Below are positions 10,302-52,881 of a stretch of DNA of 64,000 bases, in pieces. Made by a program: the position numbers and the translations under genes. Origin of the DNA: a virus. The notes under the pieces are model-generated. The model ran no database searches. It saw only the letters and a program-made list of their open reading frames with translations, and had not been told where the DNA came from. How positions within the stretch are numbered: the stretch's first letter is position 1; every line of letters starts with the position of its first letter. The DNA lies in the IMG/VR virus record IMGVR_UViG_3300021512_000004, positions 10,741-74,740 of that record, one strand, 5' to 3'.

Positions 10302-11789
10302 TTACTGAAGAGTCAGCTTACGGTTTGCATTCTCTACCGCGTGGTTTACTACAGACTTCTCTCCCTTCGAGTCCGCATCGCTTGGAACCTCAGCAGAAGC
10401 TCCTGCACGGTACTTAGCATTAAATATGCTGTGTACTCTGTTGTACTGGGAAATGACCAAAGAAACGTCCATTCCGTCCATCTTGGATACCATGCCTCCA
10501 AGGGGGAGCTGCATCCGGTTCGTGACGTCAATAACTATCTTGGTAAGTGCTACCTCCGTAGACTTCGCCTTAGTCAACTCAGACTGTGAAGCTGTCAGGT
10601 CGGCCTTGCTTTGTGCCAATTCAGTAGATAGCGAAGTTACCTTATCGAGCAAGGTTTCCAAAGTCTTATCAGGGGCAGCTTGAAGCGTAACTCCTTCCTC
10701 GACTTTGCCTTCAACTTCCTTAGCAGCTTCTTTACCTTCTTCTGCGGCAGCTTCAACTTTAGGGGCTTCTTTACCCTCCTCGGTTTCTGTGATCATTTTC
10801 GGATCAGCCAAAACCTCAGCTTCTGGAGCTCCAGAAGCGATGGCTGCTACTGCTTCCTTAGTTAGAACTTTTTTCTTCATATCAAACTCACTCAAGTTAA
10901 TGTGTTGGTTGACCTCAAGACCTTCCACGTTGTTCTTGTGCTTACTGGAGATATGCTCAACTACTCTGTCAAACGTATCTATTGAATCCACAAGACCTAC
11001 AGGAACTGCCTCAGCCCCTATAAATACCCTGCCTTCTGCGGCAGTGGCTATTAAAGCTGGAATAGGGATACCTCGGTAGTCTGATACAGTCTCTAGGAAT
11101 ACATTATAAATGGAATCCATTTGGGCCTCTATCTGCTCACGGGCTTTACCATCCAACTTCTCATAAGGGGTTCCAAGACTCTTGTACTCCCCTTTACGAA
11201 TAACTGTAACCTCTACTCCATCTTTCTTCAACCTCTCAGCATAACTGGCGTGAGTGGTTATCACCCCGATGGAGCCTACTGTAGCCAACTTACCTGCGAA
11301 TATTTCCTTGGAGCTTGACCCAAGCCAGTACCCTCCAGAGGCCATAACGGTGTCAGTGAAAGCATAAACGGGACAGAGGCTGTCATTCACCTCTCGAATG
11401 AAATCCGCAGCCCCGGAAACTCCCGACGCACTTCCCCCAGGCGTCCCCAGAAGCAGCAGGACTGCTGACACTTCTGGGTGCTCTATCGCAGAGAAGACCG
11501 CATTTCTTATCTCCTCATAACTCACTACCCCAAAATACCGATTCCATCTATTGTTCTCAGTCACTAAAGGGCCGGAGATGCTGACTATTCCTACATTATT
11601 GTGGCGGGAGACCATGTATCCCATATCCCCAAACCCGTCTTGATCTTCATCTTCATCTTGAGGCCCGTATGAGGTGGATATAATGGCCTCAAGATCTTTT
11701 GGGGATGTCTCATTTACCTTAGTGAGGATATCTTGGTAAGTTTTAAAACTTCCCTCATCCCCTAACCAGATAGTGTGGTCGTTTTTCAC
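10302..11789 (-). CDS. S49 (SppA-like) prohead protease fused to a scaffold region
   Basis: TPGG, MASGGYWLGS, VGSIGV and GEYKSLG motifs of S49 peptidases; acidic coiled-coil C-terminal half. Confidence 0.88.
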   Translation of the reverse strand: MKNDHTIWLGDEGSFKTYQDILTKVNETSPKDLEAIISTSYGPQDEDEDQDGFGDMGYMVSRHNNVGIVSISGPLVTENNRWNRYFGVVSYEEIRNAVFSAIEHPEVSAVLLLLGTPGGSASGVSGAADFIREVNDSLCPVYAFTDTVMASGGYWLGSSSKEIFAGKLATVGSIGVITTHASYAERLKKDGVEVTVIRKGEYKSLGTPYEKLDGKAREQIEAQMDSIYNVFLETVSDYRGIPIPALIATAAEGRVFIGAEAVPVGLVDSIDTFDRVVEHISSKHKNNVEGLEVNQHINLSEFDMKKKVLTKEAVAAIASGAPEAEVLADPKMITETEEGKEAPKVEAAAEEGKEAAKEVEGKVEEGVTLQAAPDKTLETLLDKVTSLSTELAQSKADLTASQSELTKAKSTEVALTKIVIDVTNRMQLPLGGMVSKMDGMDVSLVISQYNRVHSIFNAKYRAGASAEVPSDADSKGEKSVVNHAVENANRKLTLQ

Positions 11790-43822: not shown

Positions 43823-44581
43823 ATGAAAAACATACAATTGAAAATACTGAGTCCGCTAGTAGGAAATGAGTTCCCAATTCCAGCTTACTCAACAGAGGGA
43901 TCTGCCGGAATGGATCTCAGGGCCTGCATTGAGCAGGAAATGGCTGTCAGTAAAGGAAAAGCAGTCTTAATCCCTACTGGGGTAGCTATACACATAGAAG
44001 ACCCTGCATACGCTGCAGTAATCTTACCAAGATCAGGTCTGGGCCATAAGCATGGAGTAGTCCTTGGCAATCTGGTGGGGCTGATTGACAGTAAAAATCA
44101 TAGGTAAATTGCTGTCATTAAATTCGGTGAATTGCTGGGAAATCCTTAGAGTTCTTATACCAAAGCGGAACTGGAAACGGTAAACGTAACGGTTTGAAAA
44201 GTTAAGAAATTGGACAATCAGCAGCCAAGACCCTGAAAAGTGTAAAAGTATGGGTAAGGTTCAACGACTAGGTGTTGAGTTAGCTAGACGATACTACACC
44301 CACGAGCGCCGGACACTTAAATTAAGTGAAGATATAGTCTGAACTTTAGGGAAACTTAAAGAAACAAGGATAAAGAGCCTTGTGATAACACGATGGATTA
44401 CCAAGGACAGTTGATGATCTCCTGCTGGAATAGGAGCGATGTGAGCTACATAGTGAAGCCTGGGGAGCGCATAGCCCAGTTGATCATTGTTCCTGTAGTG
44501 CAGGCAGAATTTGAAGTGGTTGAGGAGTTTAGCCAGAGTCAAAGAGGGGAGGGAGGATTTGGCAGTACTGGAGTTTGTTAA
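43823..44581 (+). CDS. dut: Trimeric dUTPase, intron-split: exon 1 43823-44092, exon 2 44396-44581 (151 aa)
   Basis: Motifs GSAGMDL, PRSGLG, GLIDS|DYQG, RIAQL and [10 protein letters not shown]; removing 44093-44395 restores motif III exactly in frame. Confidence 0.95.
44093..44395 (+). ncRNA. Group I self-splicing intron (IA-like, 303 nt, no homing endonuclease)
   Basis: P element AATTGCTGGGAA, Q AATCAGCAGCC, R GTTCAACGACTA and S AAGATATAGTCT. P1 exon UGACAGU pairs with GCUGUCA giving the U-G wobble; terminal G; P3 TTCGGTG/CGCCGGA; a P7.1 hairpin, P8 CACTTA/TAAGTG and a GAAA-capped P9. Confidence 0.93.
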
Positions 44582-45281: not shown

Positions 45282-45616
45282 AGGCGCTCTGCGGAGTAGA
45301 AAGTATACCTTACAGGTTATGTACGTTCAATAGGAGTGGAGTTATGGCAAGCATTTTTGTAATGACAGACCCTATGTCTGAAGTTTACTACTCGCTGAAG
45401 GATAATCGGGTTAGAAAGTTCAACCTTCATGGGAAAACGCTGTATGACGAATATAAAGGGGTTTCTGCGGAAGGGTGGGAGGATGCGCTAGTAAAGTTCG
45501 TGAAACAGCAGCGATTGAATATAGATGGAGGGGAAGGACTTCCCTCATTCGTGTACGGCCTGATTGATAGAGGACTGCTGGAAGACTAACAGGCGCTCTG
45601 CGGAGTAGAAAGTATA
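45282..45616 (+). repeat. 26-bp direct repeat flanking ORF 45344-45589
   Basis: AGGCGCTCTGCGGAGTAGAAAGTATA at 45282 and 45591. Confidence 0.85.
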
Positions 45617-46507
45617 TATCATAAGGTAGGAGGGAGCTAGAGATGAGGTATAAAACTGAAAATAAGCACATAGATGAGATTAGAAGCGGAGACTACGTGT
45701 TACATAATGAGGAGGTGGTAACTGTAGGGCGGAGGGATATAAAACTGAGCGAATTTATGGGAACAACTCTGTTCGGAGACTGCTATCACTTGGGAACAAA
45801 GCCAGTGAAAAAGGTGACAATCCTTGGGAGTGAAAGACTATGAGCATCAAAACAACATGTCAGAATGGACTGACACTATGATTGAGGACAAGATGGCGGA
45901 ACCGTTTTTCCGGCACAGTATGTTTAACAATTACACTCTGCCACGTTAGCTGAGTTGCTATCAATTACGGAGGGATAATTATGTGCTTGATAACCGACGT
46001 GTATGATGCTGGATACGACTGTAGTAAAAAGGAGAAAGGCTATAGCCCAGAAGGTAGCGCCGCAGTAGCCCTGGCAAAACATGAGATAGCCTGCCTGAAA
46101 CTTGAAAGCGAGGGTTATTTTGCAAAGATACAAAAGATGAGGGCTACTCTAGAGTTGACGAAGAGATCTATTATCGACAGGAGGCTTAATATGCCAGAGA
46201 CAATGGCCGTGATTGAGGAGGCTTTAGCCTCGCAGCGGTCGATTAAGCTACCATTTAATTTTGGATAAATCCACGGGGGTTGCAGATGAGACTAAAAATT
46301 AAACAGAGCCAGAATTTAAAAGAAGGGGAGGTAAGGGTTTGCAAAGGGTTTCTATGGTTGCCTAAATACCTGGATAGAGAGTGGAGGTGGCTTGAGTTTG
46401 CAGAATGGGCACAAATGACAATGCGACTACCCCCACTTGCGGTTGAAGTCGGTTGCTATTCCCCAGGGCAAACTCCCCTTCAATGGGTGAGTACGGAGTG
46501 GAGGTAA
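45344..46507 (+). CDS. Four small hypothetical genes (45344-45589, 45643-45843, 45981-46268, 46280-46507)
   Basis: ORFs with RBS-like sequences. Confidence 0.5.
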
Positions 46508-46644
46508 CCCCCGGGCTGGTTCCTTATAGTTGTAAATTTACTATTTGGAGCGTTAAACGTAAGGAATTTTACGCAGCTCTAACACCAGATTCAGCTGCGC
46601 GCTTGGCGCGTCCGCTGGAATTAATGTTAGATTGCGATTGATTT

Positions 46645-46884
46645 TTGGAGGATGAGAGAGTGGATAAAGCAAAAGAGATTCGCAGGGGATTTGTTGATAT
46701 TTGGAAATGGATAGGCTCGCCAGATTGTTGGTTTTTAATAATGGTTACGTTTTGCCTCTGGTGCATATTTTTAGCTCCAGAATCAGCTATCGCTGGGCTT
46801 GCGAATACATTTATTGTTATCGGGCTGGTTATAATTTGGCATTTGGCAAGAATCGCAAAATCCTTAGAGGACAAGGCAATCTAA
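46645..46884 (+). CDS. Cassette A gene: two-TM membrane protein
   Basis: Bounded by GTTAGATTGC...GCAATCTAAC; its stop is the TAA of TAAC. Confidence 0.7.
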   Translation: MEDERVDKAKEIRRGFVDIWKWIGSPDCWFLIMVTFCLWCIFLAPESAIAGLANTFIVIGLVIIWHLARIAKSLEDKAI

Positions 46885-46931
46885 CAACCAGCATAACGGG
46901 TGAGCGGATAATTTAACTGAGGATGGTGAGC

Positions 46932-47327
46932 ATGGAAAACCAGAACGAACAGAAGCAACAAGAAACCAGCGGTGAAGAAGCGAATCCGGTTGATGTAATT
47001 GTTAGTGCTCGCTGCCCGGACTGCGCTGCTCAGCCTGGCATGCTGCACAAGCTGGGCTGTGATGTTGAAAAATGCCCCGAATGCGGCTGGCAATATATCA
47101 GCTGTGACTGCCCCGCCGAAGAGACAACGGCTCCCCGCCTCCTCTGGTCTGGCGAATGGCCAGGGATAAGGGAGTGCCGCGAATTTGGATGGTATTCAAA
47201 ATTGGTTTCTGGGCGCGGCTGGGTGAGCTGTGACAAAAGCGAGCCTGGCGCAAGCGAGAGCCTCAACCGCCTTGCCGTTGACGCCACATGGGATAAAGAA
47301 AAAGGGCGCTACATACTAGAGAGCTAA
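46932..47327 (+). CDS. Cassette B gene: Cys-rich zinc-binding protein starting inside attC
   Basis: TGAGGA RBS and ATG lie within the attC loop; CPDC..H..GCD.E.CP.CG.Q..SC.C motif. Confidence 0.75.
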   Translation: MENQNEQKQQETSGEEANPVDVIVSARCPDCAAQPGMLHKLGCDVEKCPECGWQYISCDCPAEETTAPRLLWSGEWPGIRECREFGWYSKLVSGRGWVSCDKSEPGASESLNRLAVDATWDKEKGRYILES

Positions 47328-47398
47328 CGCTCGCATAAACTGCGGAGCGTCAGCGGAGTCAGATTTTCATGCGATTGTTATAAATCTGGAGTAGAACG

Positions 47399-47644
47399 AT
47401 GGCAACAAACAAATACGATTTGGACACAGCTTACATCGGAAAAAACCTTAAAATATTGCAGCGGGATATTGAGCAATATACCCCTCAAGAGATGAGGACA
47501 GCTTTGAACAAGCTGGCAGACACGTGCCATAACTTTGCTAAGTGCGGTCGCTGTAGCGGCTACAACACGTCAACGATGCGACACGATGCGGCTCACTGGT
47601 TTTGCTATGACTGCGCCGAGAAGTACCCACTAAAAGCCTTATAA
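47399..47644 (+). CDS. Cassette C gene: small protein with C-terminal zinc ribbon
   Basis: GGAG RBS; CGRC...CYDC; stop in TAAC. Confidence 0.7.
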   Translation: MATNKYDLDTAYIGKNLKILQRDIEQYTPQEMRTALNKLADTCHNFAKCGRCSGYNTSTMRHDAAHWFCYDCAEKYPLKAL

Positions 47645-47718
47645 CGCTCAATTAAACGGTTGCGTAGCAATCCGGTTTAAATTGCTTGTTATATTTAATA
47701 TTAATTCGGAGAAAAATC

Positions 47719-47967
47719 ATGAGTGAAATTGAAACAGTTGCAGCGAGTCTCACTATTGAAATGAATGTCACATGCCCTAATCCTGACTGCGGGGATTATA
47801 TAGATTTGCTGCGATCAGAGTATACGAACGGGGTGGATCATAATGAGGACGGGGGTTTGCTGCGCCAGATGTTCCCTGAAAATCATAGTAATGAAGATTT
47901 TGAGTGTGATGATGTCATTTGCACAAAATGCAAAACAATGTTCAATGTGCGCGAGCTGGAATGGTAG
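47719..47967 (+). CDS. Cassette D gene: zinc-ribbon protein
   Basis: GGAG RBS; CPNPDC...CTKC; bounded by GTTATATTTA...TAAATATAAC. Confidence 0.7.
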   Translation: MSEIETVAASLTIEMNVTCPNPDCGDYIDLLRSEYTNGVDHNEDGGLLRQMFPENHSNEDFECDDVICTKCKTMFNVRELEW

Positions 47968-48027
47968 TAAATATAACACCCTGCATAACGAGTGAGCGTG
48001 GACAACAAAATGAATGAGGTGAACACG

Positions 48028-48330
48028 ATGGGCAAGAACGAAGCCACGAAGACAGAACCCAGCGGCGAAGAAGCGAATCCAGTTGATGCACTTGTTATGC
48101 GGCAACTAGATAAAATCACTGGATATTTTCAGCCTAAACGCACGGAAACGCTGCGCGATGAAGCCCTGCCATTTGTTGGTCGGCTATTAACATTCGAGGC
48201 TCTTTGGCTGATAGATAAAGAAGATGGGGGCCCTTACGTCGGACAATGGGCGATGCGCCCGATTAATGAAGCAGGGGGCTGGTTGCCAATTGGGTGGGTT
48301 CCCGAAGAAGACATTAGACCTGCTACATAA
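48028..48330 (+). CDS. Cassette E gene: hypothetical protein starting inside attC
   Basis: GAGGTG RBS and ATG inside the attC loop; leader SGEEANPVD shared with cassette B. Confidence 0.7.
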   Translation: MGKNEATKTEPSGEEANPVDALVMRQLDKITGYFQPKRTETLRDEALPFVGRLLTFEALWLIDKEDGGPYVGQWAMRPINEAGGWLPIGWVPEEDIRPAT

Positions 48331-48412
48331 CACCCGATTCAGCTGCGCGTTTGGCGCGTCCGCTGGAATTAATGTTAGATTGCTAATTAATTAATTATGG
48401 GGCGATAACGAG

Positions 48413-48601
48413 ATGGCCGAAGTGAAGTTCTGGTGTGACAGCGGGGCAAACATCCATTCTTGCAATACTGAAACAGTTGATACCGTTGATGATTTAGGGT
48501 TAGACGAAGGGGAGTGGGAAAAGCTCACTGATGACGAAAGGCACAAGCATGTTAGGGATTGGGCTAATAACTACATAGAGATGGGGTGGGCAGCAATCTA
48601 A
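48413..48601 (+). CDS. Cassette F gene: small acidic protein
   Basis: Bounded by GTTAGATTGC...GCAATCTAAC. Confidence 0.7.
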   Translation: MAEVKFWCDSGANIHSCNTETVDTVDDLGLDEGEWEKLTDDERHKHVRDWANNYIEMGWAAI

Positions 48602-48643
48602 CGCCCACATAAGCGACTTGATGTGATTGTTATAAATGAAACT

Positions 48644-48808
48644 ATGAAAAAGTATATTTGCGTTAGGTGTTTAACCGTAATGAGCCGGGTTGAGCTTAGA
48701 GACGGAGCAAAACTTAAAAAGATTTCTATTGAGTTAAGCCGGAAAATTAAAATGTGCAAGTCTTGCACATGCCGGACTTTCTATAGTATTTAATTTGGGA
48801 GCAAGTAA
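48644..48808 (+). CDS. Cassette G gene (cassette end lost): 54-aa zinc-finger-like protein
   Basis: Manual translation MKKYICVRC...MCKSCTCRTFYSINLGSK. Confidence 0.5.
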
Positions 48809-48985
48809 ACGTAAGTAAAAAGACAGTTTTGAATGCTCCGAAGGTGAGCGTAGAGATAACTATTGTGTATATTGCAATGGGAAATATCGAGGTGTCCAGA
48901 GCATTACGACAATCACGAACAATCTAAGAAAGGCGCTACCGTCTTTCAAGGCAACATAATTAGATTGTTTTAAAGAGGGTAAAAT

Positions 48986-49273
48986 ATGGGAAAAGTTTTA
49001 AAGTTCAAACGAAAGGTTTCATTCTCAAAGGAGAAGATGATCTCTGCAAATCCTAACGTAAAGGTAAAAGAAGAGGAGATGGAGATTTATCAAGAATTTG
49101 GAAAGGTTTACGCAGATGTATTCGTAAAGCCTCATGGGTTCTACTCCGGGGCGTTCTTATTAAACGAAAACACCTTGAAGATAGAGGAGATGGTGAGCCT
49201 CCTGCCAAGGAGGTTCTTCCTGTCACAGGTCAGGGCAGCCCAGGAAAAGTGTTGGGCGAAAGATTGGATTTAA
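48986..49273 (+). CDS. Hypothetical protein
   Basis: GAGG RBS. Confidence 0.55.
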   Translation: MGKVLKFKRKVSFSKEKMISANPNVKVKEEEMEIYQEFGKVYADVFVKPHGFYSGAFLLNENTLKIEEMVSLLPRRFFLSQVRAAQEKCWAKDWI

Positions 49274-49301
49274 ATTGCAAGATGTAATAGTATAACCTTT
49301 C

Positions 49302-49799
49302 ATGCGAGTATTGGAGATTAACATGGTGGACAAAGTAAACAACCCTTTAACACGGCAAGACTTTACAACTGGAACCTTACCTGGGGAGGTAGCCAAAGAC
49401 GGTGAGGAGATTGGAGGAGTTAGTAGAACTTTGTTAGGGGCGGAAACCATCAAGGCTAAGGACGTAGCTGAGTTTGAAAGAAAGGAAGAGTTCGAGCCTG
49501 TAAGGAAGTCATCACCGTCAAAGATTTTTTACAATCAGTTAGCCGAGTCTTTGAATAAAATGAAAGTAGGGGATATACTCTTGTTCCCTCTACCTGAGAA
49601 CATGCTTGCTCATAACTTAAAGAAAGTTATGAGCAACAGAGGGGCAAGGGACGGAGTAGATATCCAGTATGGTAGAGCAAGGAAAGACTTCCAAGGAAGG
49701 ACTCTACCAATGAAGCTACGACCGATGACAGTAAAGAAGCTGACAGCCTGCATCATCACAGTGTTCCCATTAGCAGTCAAAAACAAAGTCAAAGAGTAG
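49302..49799 (+). CDS. Hypothetical basic protein
   Basis: GGAG RBS before MVDKVN. Confidence 0.55.
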   Translation: MRVLEINMVDKVNNPLTRQDFTTGTLPGEVAKDGEEIGGVSRTLLGAETIKAKDVAEFERKEEFEPVRKSSPSKIFYNQLAESLNKMKVGDILLFPLPENMLAHNLKKVMSNRGARDGVDIQYGRARKDFQGRTLPMKLRPMTVKKLTACIITVFPLAVKNKVKE

Positions 49800-49870
49800 T
49801 GTATTTTGTTTACAACCCTTTGACTTTGTTGAACAAAGTGTAGCAGCTACACACTTACAGGAGGTAAGAA

Positions 49871-50068
49871 GTGAATGAGAATTTAAGGTACATGAAGGAA
49901 GTCCGAGCCAGGTACCGATTAACGCATAGAGAGCTGGCAGCTCTGAGTGAATATGGGTTGGACTCAGTTAAAGGGTGGTTCTCTACGTCTCCAGGAAGGA
50001 AGGTAAATGTTCCTGACAGAGCTGTGGCGATAGTTAAGTTGAAGCTGGAGAAAAGAGAAAGAACCTGA
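49871..50068 (+). CDS. Cro/XRE-like HTH DNA-binding protein
   Basis: R....LT..ELA........SV..W pattern; AGGAGG RBS. Confidence 0.65.
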   Translation: MNENLRYMKEVRARYRLTHRELAALSEYGLDSVKGWFSTSPGRKVNVPDRAVAIVKLKLEKRERT

Positions 50069-50079
50069 AGGGGGAGGCG

Positions 50080-52881
50080 ATGTATCGCTACTATCAGTTG
50101 GAAGAAGGAAAGTCAGAGTGGAAGGTAGCCAGAGCCTCTGAGATAGAGGAAAAAATTAGAGAGGAGAAACCTAAAAGAGTTGCGATATTGGAAGTTTCCG
50201 AGCTGGTAACGGACGGGGCAGATAAAAGGTCATACTATTATAAAGGGCCTTTATATTTCGATATAGACTGTAAAGATGACCTTGATTTAGCTCTGCAATC
50301 AGGGGTTAGTTTAGTCAATAAATTAGTCTCTATGGGAGTACCGCAGCAGGAAGTTCAGATATTTGCCTCAGGAAGTAAGGGGGTCCATGTTCTAGTTGAT
50401 GAGAGAGTATTCAGCTCTGGGAGAAAGGTCAAAGCCCTGCCTCTAGTTTATAAGCAGATGGCCAGGGAGCTGTATGTTCCTGGAATGGATTTCGCAGTGT
50501 ATTCTTGCGGAAGGGGAAATGTGTTTAGGGTTCCCAACATAAAAAGGCCAGACGGGAATTATAGGATACCAATCCTGTACGACAAGTTAACTTCCCTAAA
50601 TGCAGAGAGTTACAGAGAACTTTGCTCTAAGCCTAGTGAGATATCCCACCTCCTGCCAGAGAACAAAGTAAAAGCCCTGCAGTTAGAAGATATGTTTAAC
50701 AGGTGCAAAAAGGCGGCGAACTCTAAGCCTGCAGTAGTTGTCACTGTACCTTCCAACCAGATGATACAGTTGAGAGACGTGACCCCTCCTTGCATACAGA
50801 AGGTGTGCGACTGGAAAGGGCTGAGGGCTGAGGTAAACCTGAACCAAGCAGCTATGCAAGTAGCAGTTTTCCTAAAGGCTGCCAGTGTCCCAGACTCCCT
50901 GTCTTCGGGGATGATAACCAGATTAGCGGAAAACTCCGTAAGCTCGAAGTATGACAACTGGAAATCTAGGCTAGAGCACATAAAGGGCCAGGTAGAGTAC
51001 ATGAAGGGCTCTGAATATACCTTCGGATGCAACTGCATGAGGTCTCTGCTTCTGAAGCGGCCCTGTGAAGGGTGTCCCATCGAGAAGGATCAGGCGTTCT
51101 CTGAAGAGGCTTCACATGGCGGGTTGATAGAGAAGAATGGTGGGTACTACCTCAGAGGGGCAGAGAAGGATCGAATGATAACAGACTGGACGATGAAACC
51201 TATGGACTCTTTCATCGACATCCCTCAGGACGGATCCAGTCAACCTAGAAGGGTGGGAACTCTCTTCGAACTGATACAGAACGACGAAACCATCTGTACC
51301 GTTACAGTAGACGAAACCAGCTGGATGTCTCGATCAGGATTCCTCAGGGACACCACGGAGTCCGGGTATATCCCTCTCCGATCCCCCTGTAGCTACTACG
51401 GGCAAGATGCAGACCTACACAAGATCAGAAATCACGTTTTTAGGAAGGAGAGCGACATGGGAGAAGTCTACCAAGTTTATACTTGTGGGATACACGTTGA
51501 TAAGGTGAGCCATTCTGACGTATTCACCTACGTTGAGCCTGAAATGTCCATAAATAGTAACAGGGTTTCAGGCACTCATAAACTGGCAGGCCGGGTTGTA
51601 GCCAGACCTTACTTCGCTGAAGTGGGAGTGTGTAAGGAGGGAGACGAGGCTGCAGACGAGGCTCTGTTTAATCTGATGGCGATGAATGAACCCCACGTCA
51701 TGGCGAAGACACTTGGTTGGTTTGTAGCCTGCCATTTGAAAGTCCATCTGACAAAAGTCTATCACCAATTCCCCGTCCTGAGTTTGTGGGGAGGGGCGGG
51801 ATCTGGGAAGTCTATCACTGCAGGTCTAGTTAGTTGGATCAACGGGACAGACTACATGGACAGAGATACAGGAGTGAACGTCTCCAACATCACCAACTAC
51901 GCCTTGCTGGAGTATTCGGCCAGCACAACGACAATCCCAAGGCTGATGGAGGAGTTCAACGAGTCTAAGATGTCAGAGAAAGCCTACAACTCTGTTGGGG
52001 AAATTCTAAAGGCCAGCTGGAACGGGGAAACTTTGCTGCGGGGTACTTTAGGCAACAAATCGGATAAGGGGAGGACGGGGGCAGTGGTTACGGCTATTCC
52101 TATCACAGGGCCTCTATGTGTGATGAGCGAGCAAAGGCCGGTTATGCCTGCCATCCAGGAGAGGTCTTTGGACGTATTCTTATCAAAGCCTGGGAAGAAA
52201 GGAAGAAAGCCTTACATGAGGAAGGCTTCTTCTGGAAAGCTCAAGTTAAGGGAGATAGGAAAGGCACTTATGTTTAAGGCTCTTCAGACGGATATAAAGA
52301 CAGCGACCAAGTGGTTTGACGAGGTGGATGATAGTTTGTCCGACGAGTTAGACGATAGGCCGAGATATTGTCAGATGGTGGCAATGATAGGCTTGAGATT
52401 TCTGAAGTTAGTGCTAGAGAAAGACCTTAAACTCCCTAAATCCTGTGCAAGATTAGACGACCTCATCTACACTCAGCAGTCTTACTTTGACAGATTGGCA
52501 GGTGATACTGCCATACTGGGGGCCAGCACTGAGATAGACAGGATATTGGACAAGATGGCCATCATGGCGTCCTTGACCACTGTAGGTAACGGGGTTGAGT
52601 GGCTTGTGGCAGGAGTTCACTACCTGAAAGGTGGGTCAGAGCTGCTGATAGATCCAACCCTATGTCACGCCATGTACAAGCAGTTCTGTGCTAGGGAAAG
52701 CAGAGAGGTGGTGATTATCAAGGAAGCTGCACAATTCAAGAAACTCCTCAGGGATGAAGCGTACTTCAAAGAGATTGTTAGGGATCCAAATATATTTGAC
52801 GGTAGGGAGCTTTATTGCTTGGACCTAGAATCCATGAAGATGCAGGAGATTCCTGTAGATAGGTTTGAGGAGTTGACGTAA
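50080..52881 (+). CDS. Primase-helicase fusion (AEP primase, PriCT/Cys region, P-loop helicase)
   Basis: LYFDID, SGSKGVH, PPCI and C..C...C..CP motifs; Walker A GGAGSGKS. Confidence 0.85.
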   Translation: MYRYYQLEEGKSEWKVARASEIEEKIREEKPKRVAILEVSELVTDGADKRSYYYKGPLYFDIDCKDDLDLALQSGVSLVNKLVSMGVPQQEVQIFASGSKGVHVLVDERVFSSGRKVKALPLVYKQMARELYVPGMDFAVYSCGRGNVFRVPNIKRPDGNYRIPILYDKLTSLNAESYRELCSKPSEISHLLPENKVKALQLEDMFNRCKKAANSKPAVVVTVPSNQMIQLRDVTPPCIQKVCDWKGLRAEVNLNQAAMQVAVFLKAASVPDSLSSGMITRLAENSVSSKYDNWKSRLEHIKGQVEYMKGSEYTFGCNCMRSLLLKRPCEGCPIEKDQAFSEEASHGGLIEKNGGYYLRGAEKDRMITDWTMKPMDSFIDIPQDGSSQPRRVGTLFELIQNDETICTVTVDETSWMSRSGFLRDTTESGYIPLRSPCSYYGQDADLHKIRNHVFRKESDMGEVYQVYTCGIHVDKVSHSDVFTYVEPEMSINSNRVSGTHKLAGRVVARPYFAEVGVCKEGDEAADEALFNLMAMNEPHVMAKTLGWFVACHLKVHLTKVYHQFPVLSLWGGAGSGKSITAGLVSWINGTDYMDRDTGVNVSNITNYALLEYSASTTTIPRLMEEFNESKMSEKAYNSVGEILKASWNGETLLRGTLGNKSDKGRTGAVVTAIPITGPLCVMSEQRPVMPAIQERSLDVFLSKPGKKGRKPYMRKASSGKLKLREIGKALMFKALQTDIKTATKWFDEVDDSLSDELDDRPRYCQMVAMIGLRFLKLVLEKDLKLPKSCARLDDLIYTQQSYFDRLAGDTAILGASTEIDRILDKMAIMASLTTVGNGVEWLVAGVHYLKGGSELLIDPTLCHAMYKQFCARESREVVIIKEAAQFKKLLRDEAYFKEIVRDPNIFDGRELYCLDLESMKMQEIPVDRFEELT

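Follow-up and report, generated by a model that had tools for sequence, protein, structure and literature searches.

How do unrelated small genes, set in a row in a viral genome, come to begin with nearly the same peptide? The question is raised by a stretch of 64,000 nucleotides (hereafter the window; positions 10,741 to 74,740 of the 74.7-kb IMG/VR virus record IMGVR_UViG_3300021512_000004), which comes from a vent phage and carries, at 46577–48635, an array of seven imperfect palindromes (S1–S7). Each palindrome starts with ..TAAC, finishes with GTTA.. and parts two small plus-strand genes. Five of them (S1, S3, S4, S6 and S7) are short (40–62 nt) and two (S2 and S5) are long; inside the latter begin the frames of genes B and E, which have the leader SGEEANPVD..V in common. 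We consider that the locus is probably a row of attC cassettes lying on the sense strand, in which the long sites code for the start of their own gene, the crossover falls at TAA|C and the leader is a passenger.

We found that all seven sites, S2 and S5 included, carry inverted ..TAAC and GTTA.. cores fitting the pattern RYYYAAC ... GTTRRRY. In constrained folds of the single-stranded DNA they show an R box, an unpaired spacer and an L box; a base is bulged at position 16 (counted from the 3′ end) in S1 and S3–S7, and further bulges fall at positions 20 and 23/24. The base at position 16 is G in most sites, while the bulge of S2 at this position comes from a geometry scanner. These positions equal those of the extrahelical bases G16/T23 and G16/A20/T24 named for attC_aadA7 and attC_oxa2 (PMC5027507). 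The scanner, which encodes the canonical attC geometry including the position-16 bulge, returned six plus-strand matches in the window, all within 46577–48635 and with S2 and S5 among them; 40 dinucleotide shuffles of the 64 kb gave about one match per strand per 64 kb. A scan demanding six of seven R-box pairs inside one site missed most of the sites, since the R boxes within the array are hybrids.

The sites are of four types. Type I comprises S1 (46577–46632, cores CTCTAAC/GTTAGAT), a hairpin with G bulged at position 16, and S6 (48325–48380, ACATAAC/GTTAGAT), 91% identical to it and recognized by both fold and scanner. The long type II sites are S2 (46879–47007, ATCTAAC/GTTAGTG), a geometry match with G at position 16, and S5 (47971–48100, ATATAAC/GTTATGC), whose core adds an in-frame ATG at 48097. 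Type III consists of S3 (47322–47383, AGCTAAC/GTTATAA) and its shorter homolog S7 (48596–48635, ATCTAAC/GTTATAA), again found by fold and scanner, with a compensatory change between them (CGCAT/ATGCG versus CACAT/ATGTG). S4 (47639–47694, TTATAAC/GTTATAT), with bulges at 16, 20 and 24, stands for type IV; its fold has a z of −3.3, within a range of −1.7 to −3.3 for the DNA folds of the short sites. All seven lie on the plus strand.

The array also bears the signature of cassettes. The GTT flank of each site pairs with the AAC flank of the following one over 10, 5, 7, 10, 6 and 11 contiguous nt, and this next-site flank beats that of the site itself in five of the six pairs, with a tie at S2 (permutation p = 0.0005). 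Such complementarity is the classic footprint of cassettes passing through a circular form. In other phage arrays (described below), 35 of 52 consecutive pairs match exactly with the next site versus 19 with their own site, and the informative pairs split 23 to 9. By every structural test at hand S1–S7 appear to be attC-type sites, recombination itself being predicted. As for the recombinase, neither the TIGR02249 profile nor PF00589, searched for IntI and tyrosine recombinases, had a match in the whole 74.7-kb record, attI not having been searched for; since the record encodes no tyrosine recombinase, the array can be described as a cluster of attC sites lacking an integrase (CALIN).

The strand on which the sites are read decides where the crossover should fall. 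In the window, the bulges and the longer 5′ spacer are on the gene-sense strand. The same scanner, applied to the class 1 integron L223, matches attC_aadA1 solely antisense to aadA1, with G at position 16 (the 59-nt attC_aadA1 query was 100% identical in around 1,960 plasmids), and in phage TJE1 the best attC lies between orf2 and orf3, antisense to both. Because the scanner matches the sense strand here and the antisense strand in both controls, the window genes are on the attC bottom strand, and the array departs from the canonical orientation with the gene on the top strand and its attC downstream. IntI cleaves within 5′-AAC-3′ of the bottom strand (PMC5027507). As the sense strand is the bottom strand and IntI cuts AAC, the predicted crossover is TAA|C, right after the stop codon of the previous gene. 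For S2 and S5 it would fall at 46884|46885 and 47976|47977, both upstream of the loop ATG, and as each gene sits behind its own attC, the leader would not be donated by the upstream cassette.

The loops of the two long sites hold complete translation starts. In S2, the Shine-Dalgarno (SD) sequence GAGGA (46919–46923) precedes ATG 46932 by an 8-nt spacer; in S5, GAGGTG (48016–48021) precedes ATG 48028 by 6 nt. The open reading frame (ORF) 46932–47327 (gene B) reads through the S2 3′ arm as MENQNEQKQQETSGEEANPVDVIV-SARCPDC, the arm coding for ..SGEEANPVDVIVS, and joins an attC-encoded leader of 23–27 aa to a Cys-rich body (CPDC..CPEC) whose TAA stop lies in the S3 core AGCTAAC. Similarly, ORF 48028–48330 (gene E) reads through the S5 3′ arm (..SGEEANPVDALV) as MGKNEATKTEPSGEEANPVDALV-MRQLDK, a leader followed by a 77-aa body. 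The two bodies fall in separate families with separate sets of homologs. B depends on the loop ATG because no in-frame ATG, GTG or TTG occurs between GTTA (47001–47004) and the first CPDC codon. The observed pattern is far from chance. On all of this the preliminary description of the locus proved right: it had placed a ribosome-binding site and an ATG in both loops, followed the frames through the 3′ arms into unrelated proteins and noted that the B body lacks a start of its own. Its further suggestion that hairpin folding could regulate translation finds no support, as S2 and S5 fold no better than shuffles and RNA folds leave most of their SD and AUG unpaired.

Over 80 nt, S2 and S5 share 74% of their bases, and they resemble each other in the 5′ arm as well (TAACAMCCWGCATAACGRGTGAGCG). 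The leader SGEEANPVD..V is common to B and E in 13 of 14 residues, and the conserved 38 nt show four DNA differences, all at unpaired attC positions, of which two are synonymous. AlphaFold2 models give the body of B a predicted local distance difference test (pLDDT) score above 90 and its leader 55–65, with residues 1–25 as low-confidence coil and 88 for the whole model; for E the body scores above 90 and the leader below 50, residues 1–20 being low-confidence coil. We infer that the site imposes this peptide, which would be a disordered passenger and not a selected tag. The exact back-translated leader pattern had no match in viral contigs.

Homologs of B are numerous: we counted 54 close ones, and loci numbered 14 in viruses and more than 550 in metagenomes. 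Many members of the family have short ordinary N-termini and several have leaders of about 22 aa. At three loci (L024, L008 and L025), the 3′ arm of an attC codes for the B leader; this attC folds strongly, with bulges at 16, 20 and 24 (the one at 16 again in constrained DNA folds), and an SD and ATG in its loop stand in frame with CPDC. That homologs keep related heads, i.e., attC-encoded leaders, implies that head and body of B may move together. E, in turn, has distant homologs outside any attC context (L021 and L022), and its family had no match in reference prokaryote genomes. Foldseek searches of PDB gave nothing significant for B and weak SH3-like rows only for E.

Loop starts recur in arrays of other, uncultured phages. 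A search pattern fitted to S2, S5 and L024 was run on viral contigs; its loose matches were mostly chance, and arrays were counted only if at least two sites on one strand passed the geometry scanner, which left 19 arrays. Among the 42 long sites of these arrays, 28 have a start in the loop from which an ORF extends into a body. The arrays hold 31 loop-start ORFs, 24 of them preceded by an SD: 15 use GTT as a codon (..VERxVR), 15 take the next frame (..LSEGLG) and the remaining one is in the frame closed by the TGA of GTTGA. With 30 of 31 ORFs in the two frames left open by GTTGA...GTTRRRY, the attC DNA dictates the leader, and the window peptides PVDVIVS and PVDALVM read as the first frame of a diverged version. 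The same heads occur on different bodies, with similarity stopping at the two 7-mer cores; among these bodies are DNA methyltransferases and Lar-like proteins, besides many unknown proteins. One array, L212 (an IMG/VR contig), has 11 attC sites on one strand over about 4.3 kb, several with loop starts, within a complete 35.9-kb phage with terminal repeats; no integron integrase was found in this complete genome. An all-against-all BLAST of the arrays gave three long high-scoring segment pairs, too few for a tally of unit boundaries. As a separate observation, genes for N6 DNA methyltransferases start in long attC loops at L160 996–1124 and L185 730–858 (..GQVERFVM|LRGDCLEIM..DPPF), where the GTTATG core adds an in-frame ATG, like in gene E.

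Relatives of the array itself were found among Logan contigs from four metagenomes (runs X2, X3, X4 and X5). What they share with the array comes in short blocks, each opening at the TAAC of one of the sites (46580, 46881, 47325, 47641, 47974) and breaking off either just past the GTT core (46636, 47381, 47693, 48100) or at the next TAAC (47977, 48602). Matches to S1 are exact from TAAC (46580) to GTTAGATTGC (46635), at least eight contigs match S3 only at 47325–47381 with unlike DNA on either side, and one X4 contig carries S7 with 32 extra loop bases. A contig of run X2 keeps S4 and gene D together (47640–47977), bounded by two AAC boxes, with unlike DNA before them and a different attC after TAAC; record 28 of X5 likewise stops at 47977. 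This block is the unit predicted by bottom-strand recombination. In an X3 contig, the S5 head extends up to 48100 (GTTATGC) and is followed in frame by a third body (VMPLRTVCAECG); S5-type heads were also seen with variant loops. In X3 and X4, a type II head is joined straight to an S3-type attC (joint 47004->47325) and the B body is absent, apparently an empty cassette, the leader ORF of which would find its stop inside the following site. The diverse bodies that the preliminary description proposed to search for are borne out by the third body and the empty form in relatives and by the many bodies in other phage contigs. The portable start module of that description holds for the like heads on many unrelated bodies and not for the picture of a site that belongs to the front cassette and donates a start to captured DNA. 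This assignment of the site to the upstream cassette is probably wrong, given that the bulges and spacer are on the sense strand and that S4 travels with D.

Starting from the identity and strand of the attC sites, the cassette signature, the in-frame loop starts, the dependence of B on its loop ATG and the repeated use of heads with different bodies, we propose the following course of events. Along the genes, a cassette would begin with a C, continue with the attC hairpin and the GTTRRRY core and then with the gene, and close with a stop codon whose bases make up the ..YTAA of the following crossover box. Behind the short sites (S1, S3, S4, S6, S7), an ordinary SD and start codon follow the attC. 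In S2 and S5, the unpaired loop would have been taken over by the translation start of the gene itself, with an SD, an ATG and about 17 purine-rich codons, and the ribosome would then cross the arm with the bulges and the GTTRRRY core before it reaches the body. SGEEANPVD..V would then be translated attC DNA (CCR GTT GAT G.. ... GTT A..), and as such a local form of the leaders encoded by the consensus GTTGAGCGAGGGGTTAGGC in its two open frames, ..G(P/Q)VERxVR and ..LSEGLG. The crossover would be made at TAA|C by an IntI-type enzyme of the host. Head and body would normally travel together, and a rarer exchange beside the GTT core would re-pair them.

Several points weigh against this account. 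The single-strand folds of S2 and S5 are poor (z of +1.3 and −0.7), with pairing at the base only, where the R box and an L stem of 6–8 bp close a loop of about 75 nt, and the two sites may recombine badly or be relics; homologous long sites fold strongly (−27 and −30 kcal/mol for L024 and L008). Both leaders are predicted from sequence, and the enzyme acting here may not be bound by the strand rules of IntI. The argument from units concerns mainly one cassette, that of D, in assembled contigs, and in run X2 body F (48373–48602) stands behind a different, S4-like attC, so that head and body are not always co-inherited. In the other arrays, the reverse-strand control also gives a long ORF at 15 of 42 long sites, which makes ORF length alone weak evidence in high-GC contigs. 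Finally, the E body has another possible start, the in-frame ATG 48097–48099 inside the GTTATG core, and 15 of 17 E homologs are without the SGEEANPVD leader, their first residue being the aligned Met or one close to it, while one other has an unrelated N-terminus.

With a start at 48097, the leader ORF would not be in the mature product, at least in E, and the loop ORF would be incidental or serve in ribosome loading like ORF-11 of attI1. Translation from downstream of GTTA had been named in the preliminary description as the outcome that would speak against it, and for E the homologs go halfway in that direction. The predicted disorder of the leader is consistent with such a start, and so is the 94% E homolog P0055, which has the leader and differs by six changes in its 23 aa and by none in the 77-aa body. 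Yet the frame of P0055 is still open, and the 20 nt in front of 48097 hold no SD, in contrast to 48028 with GAGGTG at a distance of 6 nt. Since B is without an alternative start and in-frame loop starts recur with many bodies, we regard a leaderless product as rather unlikely.

The long attC might instead belong to the front cassette (A or D), and a crossover at G|TT would then put an incoming body behind a ready SD, ATG and leader. Head–body similarity does end right at the GTTRRRY core; the same head is found on B, on E, on the third body and on no body, body F occurs behind two heads, and the ancestral Met of E lies 2 nt past G|TT. Top-strand recombination proceeds at 10^-3 to 10^-4 of the bottom-strand rate (PMC5027507) and could rarely yield exchanges at G|TT. 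However, the bulges and the spacer asymmetry make the sense strand the bottom one, which places the cut at the 5′ AAC upstream of the loop. D is accompanied by S4 and not by the attC behind it, and homologs of B have kept related heads over deep divergence. Moreover, chromosomal integrons as a rule also have homogeneous attC sequences delimited by both cores, which does not imply crossover at both. Taken with these points, the front-cassette arrangement is decidedly unlikely.

It is very improbable that the repeats are regulatory stem-loops (terminator or promoter modules like the promoter-early stem-loops (PeSLs) of T4-type phages, or RNA processing sites) and not recombination sites: they do separate small early genes, a likeness to an extended −10 box is seen in some 3′ cores (TGTTATAAAT in S3 and S7), and S1 and S6 score as weak terminator-like hairpins, but sigma-70-type promoter-like sites number 5 versus 6.7 expected, with none on the plus strand within the array, no Rfam family matches there, and the position-16 bulge, the AAC/GTT cores and the complementarity to the next site are specifically predicted by cassette recombination. 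There is equally little chance that the shared leader is a functional peptide (a targeting tag or cleaved propeptide with an S-G-E motif) selected at the protein level, which would fit its near identity in unrelated proteins and the two synonymous changes out of four, but not the location of all four at structurally unpaired attC positions, the reading of the same DNA in two frames of other arrays to give unrelated peptides, the freely varying N-terminal half in P0055, the presence of the leader in only two of seven cassettes or the low-confidence coil given by AlphaFold2. A capsid-targeting or propeptide leader had been considered and was rejected on account of this two-frame reading.

By gene content the virus is a tailed phage, with terminase, head protease and major head protein genes on the minus arm and primase, helicase, PolA-type polymerase and SbcCD genes on the plus arm. 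The array lies in this early/replication arm, between the dUTPase and primase genes, and within a hypervariable region (46229–48826): a close relative (run X2) is 97–100% identical on the flanks (45500–46228 and 48827–50200) and has other DNA in between. The cassette genes other than B and E are also on the plus strand. Gene A (46645–46884), for a small membrane-like protein, has a likely start at GTG 46660 behind GGAGG and its TAA stop in the S2 core ATCTAAC. Gene C (47399–47644) encodes an 81-aa CxxC protein, with its own SD (GGAG) after the attC and a stop in the S4 core TTATAAC, and gene D (47719–47967) an 82-aa zinc-ribbon-like protein. Gene F (48413–48601) belongs to DUF7167/phrog_8831, and gene G (48644–48793) was read as a 49-aa CxxC..CxxC protein. 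In Pfam and PHROG searches of the cassette proteins, gene F alone could be named, with no family for genes A and B.

Several features around the array were noted as well. The gene 46280–46507 ends in ..GGTAAC, followed by ..TAGTTGTAAAT (46502–46540), and may mark a degenerate site S0; the variable region begins earlier, at 46229. At 49290–49318, TATAAC is followed by CTTTCATGCGAGTATTGGAG, which is like the S3 3′ arm (TTTTCATGCGATTGTTATAAATCTGGAG) without the GTTA core and may be a decayed last site. Upstream, a perfect 26-nt direct repeat (AGGCGCTCTGCGGAGTAGAAAGTATA, 45282–45307 and 45591–45616) encloses a small ORF (45344–45589), and a perfect 14-bp inverted repeat (45215–45228/45241–45254) lies just upstream of it, which could be another small mobile or regulatory unit. 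At around 45856, the close relative in X2 has about 150 additional bases within an otherwise 98–100% identical stretch. The dUTPase gene (exons at about 43823–44107 and 44393–44581) is split by a group I intron at 44064–44361 (Rfam RF00028, 101.9 bits), and this region is 83–87% identical over about 85–110 nt to the polA intron region of Staphylococcus phage K-like phages.

For annotation, the sense-strand cassette reading means that starts will be miscalled, as gene callers and attC finders handle genes and sites separately. The finding bears on how cassettes stay expressed wherever they are inserted. It also touches on their origin: how a gene acquires its attC is, to our knowledge, not known to anyone, and identical heads on unrelated bodies together with a bodiless head are the intermediates expected from assembly of head plus body. 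Tentatively, such phage arrays might represent a distinct, coding variant of the integron, in which a sense-strand attC serves at once as recombination site, translation start and exchangeable N-terminal exon, and in which re-pairing next to GTT, in two frames, turns leaderless DNA into an expressed gene in one step. If true, one could see here a route by which cassettes are made, and their making is the origin problem still unsolved for integrons. The hypervariable early region, 2.6 kb with small zinc-ribbon and unknown proteins, is in any case a place to look for host-takeover or anti-defence genes.

Integron cassettes are usually described as a promoterless gene followed by a non-coding attC. 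Our literature searches returned no account of attC arrays on the sense strand or of translation starts within attC loops, with ORF-11/ORF-18 of attI1 as the sole analog found. In T4-type phages, PeSLs are repeated stem-loops that flank small genes in the hyperplastic early region and are defined by an early promoter. The palindromes described here likewise stand beside small early genes, but show no promoter enrichment and have attC cores and bulges. Chromosomal integrons carry families of long, similar attC sites on unrelated genes, such as the Vibrio cholerae repeats (VCRs) of about 120 nt, which are paired along most of their length and non-coding. As in the VCR-type sites, similarity in our array stops at the two cores; in contrast to them, four site types are found among seven sites, and in S2 and S5 the leader is encoded by an unstructured loop of about 75 nt. 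Reverse-oriented cassettes of chromosomal integrons, in which toxin-antitoxin genes have their own promoters (PMC8876359, PMC13108822), resemble the present ones in having the gene on the strand opposite to the usual cassette orientation. They are a minority in their arrays, with separate promoters and starts, whereas here all seven are reversed and two start inside the attC.

The closest relatives of the array are the CALINs of virulent phages, some sites of which are recombined by IntI1 (PMC9892861, Qi et al. 2023). The cores, spacer, L box and bulges at 16, 20 and 23/24 are alike, and so are the co-oriented one-gene cassettes, the core matching the inverse core of the next site and the absence of an integrase. 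In contrast to the class 1 control and to TJE1, where genes are on the top strand, the genes here are on the bottom strand and the attC precedes the gene. The loop and 3′ arm are coding in the long sites, and the paper on phage CALINs mentions neither the coding nor the strand feature. For the start itself, the nearest parallel is attI1, whose ORF-11, ORF-18 and ORF-17 supply a start to cassettes lacking one, along with the N-terminal fusions of aac(6′)-Ib (PMC8876359). In both systems, the SD and ATG of a recombination site serve a startless gene, sometimes by in-frame fusion. The attI1 starts, however, are in the single attI of the platform, act mainly by translational coupling and span the crossover point, whereas in the phage array the start is in the attC of single cassettes, fused in frame and downstream of the predicted crossover, so that it would move with its gene.

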